Below, one piece after another: positions 17,152 through 17,389 of a stretch of 64,000 nt of DNA. The notes beneath the pieces were generated by a model. It was not told where the DNA came from. It searched no databases and worked only from the letters and a program-made list of their open reading frames with translations. Made by a program: the position numbers and the translations under genes. Origin of the DNA: a virus (taxonomy: Duplodnaviria > Caudoviricetes); IMG/VR virus record IMGVR_UViG_3300002307_000018, positions 200,638 to 264,637 of that record; one strand, written 5' to 3'. Every line of letters starts with the position of its first letter. The first letter of the stretch is position 1.

Positions 17152-17278
17152 AAACCATATTGAAATACACTCTTTAAACAAGTTTATCGGCACTGCCTCT
17201 TGTTGCGGCTGCTCACGGGTTTATCATATTTTATAATAATAAACGCTGCCTTATACTGAATGTACTTCAATATGGTTT
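17152..17278 (-). ncRNA. conserved-stem ncRNA, copy E
   Basis: AAACCATATTGAAGTACATT...AGTGTATTTCAATATGGTTT. Confidence 0.7.
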
Positions 17279-17389
17279 CTATTGTGGGACTCGAACCCAC
17301 AGTTTGCAACGGTTTCGATGAGTTTTATCTCATCGGAGGGTTTAAGCGTCCCGCCGCCGTCTGCGTCTACCTTTACCGCTATTATAAAC
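17273..17389 (-). ncRNA. tRNA-like RNA with expanded anticodon domain
   Basis: Leu-type D-arm (GCGGTAAAGGTAGACGC), stem GACGG/CCGTT enclosing 44 nt, T-arm GTGGG-TTCGAGT-CCCAC, ACCA end; weak acceptor stem. Confidence 0.55.

Follow-up and report, generated by a model that had tools for sequence, protein, structure and literature searches.

A tRNA-like RNA gene with an additional helix, apparently derived from tRNA-Leu(UAA), in the tRNA array of a giant freshwater phage

Ever since T4, small stable RNAs of unexplained function have been recognised in the tRNA gene clusters of phages. The locus described here raises the question of what kind of RNA is encoded by an element which has the frame of a tRNA, and which carries a domain of two hairpins where an anticodon loop is expected. 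The sequence-only reading of the locus had offered two answers, namely, an intron-like insert that needs cleavage and ligation, or a tRNA mimic like YrlA. The window analysed, i.e., the whole stretch of 64 kb to which all positions refer unless another contig is named, forms the end of the 264.6-kb IMG/VR record IMGVR_UViG_3300002307_000018, which represents an uncultured giant freshwater phage and is estimated to be 74% complete. Freshwater metagenomes contain DNA near-identical to the window. ARAGORN identified 31 tRNA genes in the record, all of which (31/31) are located inside the window on the minus strand, and all of which (31/31) encode their CCA end. They include a normal tRNA-Leu(UAA) gene (2447–2531), and the tRNA genes around the element are without exception on the same strand as the element. 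The ARAGORN-called genes for tRNA-Glu (18098–18172), tRNA-Asn (20193–20268) and tRNA-Phe (23031–23106) on the minus strand show an unusual T loop, AUCGUAA or AUCGUUA, instead of UUCRANY, and the stretch 24563–24633 (minus strand) matches the Rfam tRNA model with 34.6 bits and has a CAU anticodon loop, without being called by ARAGORN.

The element comprises 117 nt and extends on the minus strand from 17389, the position of G1 in the numbering used here, down to 17273. The parts named in the sequence-only reading, that is, a Leu-type D arm, a GACGG/CCGUU stem around a 44-nt two-hairpin domain, a canonical T arm and ACCA, were all found there. The acceptor 5' strand (G1–A7, 17383..17389) pairs with a 3' strand of 7 nt (17283–17277); the resulting stem is indeed weak, as noted before, with standard pairs at five of seven positions, G.A at 1:72 and A.A at 7:66. 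A 3-nt linker (17382–17380) leads to the D arm of tRNA-Leu type (17363..17379), in which a stem of 3 bp carries an 11-nt loop with GG. At the position where an anticodon stem normally starts, the strand GACGG (17357..17361) pairs with CCGUU (17308..17312; 17361–17357 with 17312–17308), forming a 5-bp helix referred to as P(x). The 44 nt enclosed by P(x) (17356–17313), which include a perfect 7-bp hairpin, are made up of hairpin 1 (17335..17355), the loop of which contains CUUAAAC (17346–17340), hairpin 2 (17317..17334) with a 6–7 bp stem and a 6-nt loop, and a GAAA linker (17316–17313); inspection of the fold gives linkers of 1, 0 and 4 nt in the junction inside P(x). A variable-loop-like linker of 7 nt (17307–17301) is followed by the T arm (17284..17300) with the stem GUGGG/CCCAC of 5 bp, or 6 bp if U89–A107 is included, and the loop UUCGAGU, by the acceptor 3' strand, by a discriminator A (17276), and by CCA (17275–17273). 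Acceptor and T stems form a stack of 12 bp (7/5 or 6/6). The pairs G29.U82 and U3.G111 would become A.C mismatches on the plus strand; the fold therefore belongs to the minus strand alone. On either side, the element is bounded as a cassette by a copy of a 15-nt inverted repeat, the arms of so-called stalks: the 3' arm of the upstream stalk at 17391..17405 and the 5' arm of the downstream stalk at 17261..17275 (both minus strand), so that the CCA at the same time supplies bases 1–3 of the next stalk arm.

With default settings, ARAGORN did not call the element, and the Rfam tRNA model RF00005 did not match it even at E ≤10; by this standard it is not a canonical tRNA. Neither the window element nor its distant homologue in the phage contig L137 (see below) matched any Rfam family. 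When nt 29–38 and 75–88, which comprise both strands of P(x) and short linkers, were deleted in silico, ARAGORN at default settings called the remainder as tRNA-Leu(UAA). Since the sequence freed of P(x) is called in this way, the two hairpins are native arms of tRNA-Leu, hairpin 1 being the former anticodon arm and hairpin 2 the former long variable arm, and the novelty resides in the extra helix P(x) beneath them. A type-II D arm resembling those of phage Leu tRNAs, the discriminator A, a UAA anticodon loop, the long variable arm and the T arm are all present, identifying the element, as far as sequence features can tell, as a tRNA-like RNA gene that evolved from type-II tRNA-Leu(UAA). That it is beyond chance follows from the default Leu(UAA) call without P(x) and from the stems kept in two independent homologues. 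The tRNA scaffold with a Leu-type D arm thus holds, and a mimic-type reading is the best one, whereas the proposed replacement of the anticodon loop by a foreign module does not.

The check with the intron option of ARAGORN, which had been recommended along with the intron reading, gave a call only at a threshold of 80%, as tRNA-Ser(CGA) with a 37-nt intron and a CUCGAAA loop, and this call is outscored by the Leu(UAA) call after removal of P(x). An intron-containing tRNA, from which 37–44 nt inside GACGG/CCGUU would be excised and the halves of which would be joined, perhaps by the Rnl1 of the phage, to give a class-I tRNA, would account for the well-formed CUCGAAA loop, and it would be in line with the lack of a UCN-reading Ser tRNA that relatives of the phage have and with the presence of Rnl1, kinase-like and phosphoesterase genes. 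However, besides the low threshold required, the anticodon that excision leaves is a different one in each case (CGA for the window, ACU for L137, according to ARAGORN), the spliced form would be devoid of the long variable arm needed by a Ser tRNA, and the supposed intron is the best-conserved part of the RNA. There is no BHB geometry, i.e., no 3-nt bulges separated by 4 bp; 44 nt are far too short for a group I intron, the core of which takes 200 nt or more, and no Rfam intron or ribozyme family was matched. Nor were splicing enzymes found in the 264.6-kb record: RtcB (PF01139) is absent, and the sole hit to the tRNA-intron endonuclease (PF01974) reached 15.8 bits, below the cut-off, and has an internal stop codon. 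An insert that needs cleavage and ligation is, on this evidence, extremely improbable.

The Rnl1-type ligase at 8924, which had been put forward as the enzyme that could seal such a tRNA, is a real gene; it codes for an Rnl1-family RNA ligase (8924–9976), adjoins a polynucleotide-kinase-like gene (ATPase, 9906–10325) and is accompanied by a phosphoesterase gene (10335–10943), all on the minus strand. The genes at 8924–10943 (minus strand) constitute a T4-like tRNA heal-and-seal set, of the kind by which phages commonly repair tRNAs. In T4, Pnkp and Rnl1 repair tRNAs that have been cut by host anticodon nucleases. With the ligase being part of a T4-style repair set, no intron is needed to explain Rnl1, and the role in tRNA splicing ascribed to it is not upheld.

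Pattern scans of public contigs retrieved homologues representing three kinds of relative; with the window copy, there are three independent full-length sequences (window, L133 and L137). L133 is a 1.2-kb contig from a lake metagenome in which the element is 93% identical over 152 nt (nhmmer, E = 1.8e-27). L137 comes from another IMG/VR phage, the record of which is 15% complete, and its element is much more distant (nhmmer, E = 3.5e-4). The contigs L034, L127 and L128 share the 3' part of the element. In scans of viral contigs with two element-specific words and a loop-plus-P(x) pattern, only L137 was real, the other hits being chance matches in coding DNA; a scan of genome contigs with a hairpin-1 word gave hits at chance level, without any element-like context as judged by nhmmer. 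Megablast against deposited phages gave no match, blastn-short against stalk-bearing loci recovered only generic T arms, and the 264.6-kb record contains neither a paralogue of the element nor an 11-nt antisense target of its distal domain. The element is real and, though narrowly distributed, conserved.

Between the window and L133, 8 of 117 nt differ; none of these differences breaks a pair, and two improve pairs. Three are located in the D loop, two in hairpin loops (one per loop), and one at a previously mismatched site of hairpin 1. The remaining two fall in the acceptor stem, where U3>C replaces U.G by C-G and A72>U replaces G.A by G.U. Under neutrality, a pattern in which no pair is broken and two are improved would have a probability of about 0.02 by a rough estimate. 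The difference in the loop of hairpin 2, A>C, also occurs in two contigs of the metagenome X6. In L137 the acceptor stem is stronger and lies in the same place, with 7 bp comprising six Watson-Crick pairs and one G.A; the D arm is almost that of a genuine Leu tRNA, the P(x) helix is shared, the second hairpin is different, and the variable linker contains about 65 extra nt. Hairpin 1 is identical at 19 of 21 nt in all three sequences, the exceptions being nt 53 and 55, in contrast to the acceptor and D arms, which diverge. In the three-way alignment, 96.8% of the pair cells are standard, a figure that falls to 30–60% once the partners are slid. L137 has one double compensatory change in each of three stems, namely D, P(x) and T: the middle pair of the D stem changes from C-G to U-A, the fourth pair of P(x), G-C in the window and L133, is U-A, and the third pair of the T stem changes from G-C to U-A. 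In a shuffle control with the three sequences, 19 of 500 shuffles reached the observed values, which is a weak result at n = 3. The compensatory pattern from three sequences is suggestive of structural constraint. In the homologue search that had been called for, L133 and L137 were found to keep every stem. Retention does not extend to L034, L127 and L128, where the 3' half of the acceptor stem and a large part of the D loop have been lost, from which we conclude that copies can decay or be remodelled.

The degenerate L034/L127 copy is also what would be expected of a decaying tRNA-Leu pseudogene or a recombination chimera, functionless and carried along between recombining stalk repeats, as are the weak acceptor stem, the failure of standard tRNA models, the absence of the cassette from one relative (see below), and the fact that a normal tRNA-Leu(UAA) is already encoded at 2447–2531. 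Against such a relic speak the absence of stem-breaking substitutions relative to L133, the compensatory changes in three stems relative to L137, the near invariance of hairpin 1 while other parts diverge, and the preservation of the module at 93% identity in the different neighbourhood of L133; we regard it as rather unlikely. Folding energies were unremarkable, with z values of –1.6 for the window element, –2.8 for L133 and +0.1 for L137. A fold into a long helix by pairing of the two flanking stalk arms (z = –5.8) is possible in the window, but L137 lacks a stalk arm directly after the element, which therefore does not depend on this fold. A protein-coding reading was rejected as well; the ORFs 17251–17481 (minus strand), 17260–17463 and 17282–17506 (both plus strand) run into flanks that are non-homologous in L133.

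Paired stalk arms occur seven times in the window, compared with about 0.5 matches expected by chance, and numerous other tRNA arrays of phages contain stalk repeats as well. Related stalk-bearing phages (L024, L053, L040 and L078) carry tRNA-Ser(UGA); a UCN-reading tRNA-Ser is absent from the whole window. Contigs from four runs were mapped to the region; three of these runs were DNA metagenomes of freshwater or lake origin, and the fourth was a freshwater metatranscriptome (X23), the contigs of which do not cover the element. Two X6 contigs carry the element with 4–9 differences, and one X2 contig joins 17269 to 17473, with the element and one stalk missing. Between 16520 and 17478, contigs of X2, X4 and X6 show differences at the level of whole units, with joints at 16907/17154, 17269/17473, 16922/17388 and 16638/16738, all at or near stalk arms, as are most of the deletion joints besides 17269/17473. 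In L133, the element is kept between two stalks whose inner parts are unrelated, and the order of other shared modules is changed. These arrangements suggest that cassettes are gained and lost by recombination between the 15-nt repeats. The element is a discrete and exchangeable module, and also a dispensable one, because at least one relative is without the cassette.

Several other spacers between stalks deserve mention. The spacer RNA between the second and third stalks (17154–17029, minus strand) has no recognisable tRNA-like fold; it has clear between-stalk homologues in at least six phage contigs (L094, L014, L040, L125, L106 and L078) and, judged by these, looks like a conserved ncRNA family. 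The spacer at 16908–16813 (minus strand), likewise without a recognisable tRNA-like fold, is conserved in L024 (E = 6e-20) and in L137 (E = 1e-8), where it lies one stalk upstream of the Leu-like element. The spacer at 16741–16634 (minus strand) is a second tRNA-like one, composed of a T arm, an anticodon-like hairpin of 5 bp and 7 nt, an acceptor stem ending in CCA, and a long hairpin in place of the D arm, in a layout like that of T4 RNAC; nhmmer revealed no homologue of it. Some spacers in L133, L076 and L078 likewise have a T arm, a closing stem and CCA at their end. Another spacer in L133 (183–322 of the reverse complement) is flanked by stalks and has an 8-bp terminal stem, a T-arm-like hairpin and CCA, with a body that is not tRNA-like. 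Since the 16741–16634 spacer and those of L133, L076 and L078 share this ending, remodelled tRNAs appear to be a recurring component of these arrays.

In mitochondria, tRNAs punctuate the processing of transcripts. The shared ending could be read in the same sense, the fold of the element being an RNase P and 3'-end signal which frees the neighbouring stalk RNAs, and the distal domain having no role. The element abuts the stalks on both sides with zero spare nucleotides, its CCA being the start of the next stalk, and this close fit would suit such a signal, as would the T arm, closing stem and CCA at the end of 16741–16634 and of some L133, L076 and L078 spacers. The distribution of conservation is the opposite of what such a signal would call for, in that the acceptor stem, which it needs, is the least conserved part and hairpin 1, which it does not need, the most conserved one; moreover, the spacers 17154–17029 and 16908–16813 occupy the same position without a recognisable tRNA-like fold. 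Mere punctuation is therefore improbable.

A perfect sigma-70 promoter was found on the minus strand at 18939–18911, upstream of the element, and a scan of this strand from the promoter down to 16200 revealed no terminator-like site; the element therefore lies within the tRNA transcription unit. Together with the stalk arms on either side, this makes it a discrete cassette inside a tRNA operon. We propose that the element acts as a non-decoding mimic of tRNA-Leu, a reading to which we assign a probability of about 0.5. It would have arisen by two complementary insertions into tRNA-Leu(UAA), one of them (about 10 nt) placed after position 26 and before the anticodon stem, the other (about 14 nt) separating the variable arm from the T arm; paired with each other, they would form the extra 5-bp helix P(x). 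P(x) would take the place of the anticodon stem, and the old anticodon and long variable arms would be carried on a distal three-way junction. The tRNA elbow (GG of the D loop, and T loop), the 12-bp acceptor/T stack, the discriminator A and the encoded CCA are retained. These are features used by RNase P and in 3'-end trimming, and the discriminator A is a major identity element for LeuRS in E. coli. With these features kept, tRNA-like maturation and stability would be expected: the RNA would be co-transcribed with the tRNAs, cut at G1 by the RNase P of the host, trimmed to CCA in the manner of a tRNA, and would accumulate as a stable RNA of about 117 nt. Perhaps it is also charged by LeuRS.

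The distance between anticodon and acceptor end is fixed by the geometry of the ribosome. In the element, the anticodon limb would be about 5 bp too long and branched, and would hence not serve in ribosomal decoding; in natural tRNAs that decode, the anticodon stem comprises 5 bp, or 6 bp at the most (PMC7609411). A tRNA-Leu(UAA) that still works, with P(x) melting or being tolerated and the CUUAAAC loop reading UUA and UUG codons, would explain why the anticodon loop is intact and invariant and why the discriminator A and the Leu D arm are kept, and it would agree with the Leu call of ARAGORN once P(x) is removed. On the other hand, P(x) is maintained by compensatory change, and places the anticodon beyond an extra helix and a junction; the anticodon arm contains C.C and, in L133, A.C mismatches; and the phage already has a canonical Leu(UAA) gene. 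Decoding with P(x) formed is unlikely from a structural point of view, and a still-working tRNA as a whole very improbable. It is the presumed exclusion of decoding by the extra helix and junction which leads to the proposal of a non-decoding mimic. Such a mimic would present a tRNA-Leu body together with an anticodon-arm-like hairpin to some tRNA-binding factor; LeuRS, an enzyme acting on anticodon loops, or a defence nuclease are candidate partners. The near invariance of hairpin 1 would point to its sequence-specific recognition by this putative partner. A more daring extension of the non-decoding mimic is that an RNA processed and perhaps charged by the host, and kept off the ribosome by P(x), could be a decoy or sponge for a host factor which attacks or senses the anticodon arm of tRNA-Leu(UAA), for instance an anticodon nuclease of a defence system, and could thereby act beside the heal-and-seal genes of the phage; we consider this specific role clearly unlikely.

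The element provides a clear case of an RNA with a readable origin, in which a leucine tRNA appears to have been rebuilt by one added helix, and which seems to be structurally constrained and mobile as a cassette. If the non-decoding mimic is correct, tRNA frames would seem to be put by phages to uses outside translation, which would fit the interest in how phages deal with host defences that target tRNAs. For annotators, the case illustrates that genes of this kind escape tRNA finders.

A second family of tRNA-like RNAs was noticed in L126 (13020–13150), L129 (490–600) and L134 (4019–4130), each on the minus strand, and in L132. These RNAs have a good cloverleaf with a covarying D stem, and an AACGG/CCGUU stem encloses 34–36 nt with a conserved purine-rich motif and a variable hairpin. 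They are located upstream of phage replication genes (Prim-Pol, AAA_24, PD-(D/E)XK) and gave no Rfam match above noise. In the 214-kb phage contig L070, which carries stalk repeats, the tRNA genes at 5204–5278 and 10349–10422 (plus strand) have CUA and UUA anticodons and may, by virtue of these, code for suppressor tRNAs.

Among known systems, a canonical type-II tRNA-Leu(UAA) shares with the element the D arm, the discriminator A, the CUUAAAC loop, the long variable arm, the T arm and the encoded CCA. The element differs by the extra 5-bp helix between the core and the anticodon and variable arms, by four nt instead of two before the D stem, by its weak acceptor, and by its failure to match RF00005. 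Intron-containing tRNAs, i.e., archaeal ones with a BHB motif and bacterial ones with a group I intron in tRNA-Leu(UAA), likewise hold extra sequence in the anticodon region of a tRNA frame; the element, in contrast, is without BHB, group I core, conserved exon junction and splicing enzymes.

YrlA and other bacterial Y RNAs, which occur in some phages, resemble the element in that a tRNA-like module is joined to additional helices. This resemblance underlies the idea of a protein-binding module in place of the anticodon arm, to which a protein of the Ro60/Rsr type would be tethered. In YrlA, the ends of the RNA form the Ro-binding stem and the tRNA-like module is distal. The topology of the element is the reverse of this, since its ends form an acceptor stem with CCA and not a long Ro-binding helix, and its extra domain is recognisable as the anticodon and variable arms of tRNA-Leu. 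A TROVE/Ro60 gene (PF05731) is absent from the 264.6-kb record, in a search whose positive controls worked, and there was no match to a Y-RNA or YrlA family in Rfam. The comparison with YrlA made in the sequence-only reading is hence barely credible.

Irregular allo-tRNA-like RNAs, which occur in polycistrons, are also tRNA frames with extra structural elements, whereas their acceptor/T stacks are 8/4 or 9/3 and their extra loops are found elsewhere; the element has a 7/5 (or 6/6) stack, and its additional helix is placed beneath the anticodon arm. In the tRNA-like structures of plant RNA viruses and in engineered tRNA scaffolds, the tRNA frame confers processing, stability or recognition by a synthetase on a non-decoding RNA. 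The former are 3' ends of RNA genomes and the latter laboratory constructs, whereas the element is a gene in the tRNA operon of a DNA phage.

RNAC (species 1 RNA) and RNAD are small stable RNAs of the T4 tRNA cluster, the role of which is unknown (PMC3014915, PMC9697503). No hit was obtained at E ≤10 in an nhmmer comparison with the T4 tRNA region, and in the absence of sequence homology to RNAC the relation is one of analogy, not of membership. RNAC is devoid of a Leu D arm, a P(x)-type helix and surrounding stalk repeats. Like the element, RNAC and RNAD are encoded inside a phage tRNA cluster on the strand of the tRNAs, and, according to the T4 record, the last part of RNAC is a canonical T arm closed off by a terminal stem, just as the T arm of the element lies within its closing stem. 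By analogy, T4 RNAC is its closest precedent.
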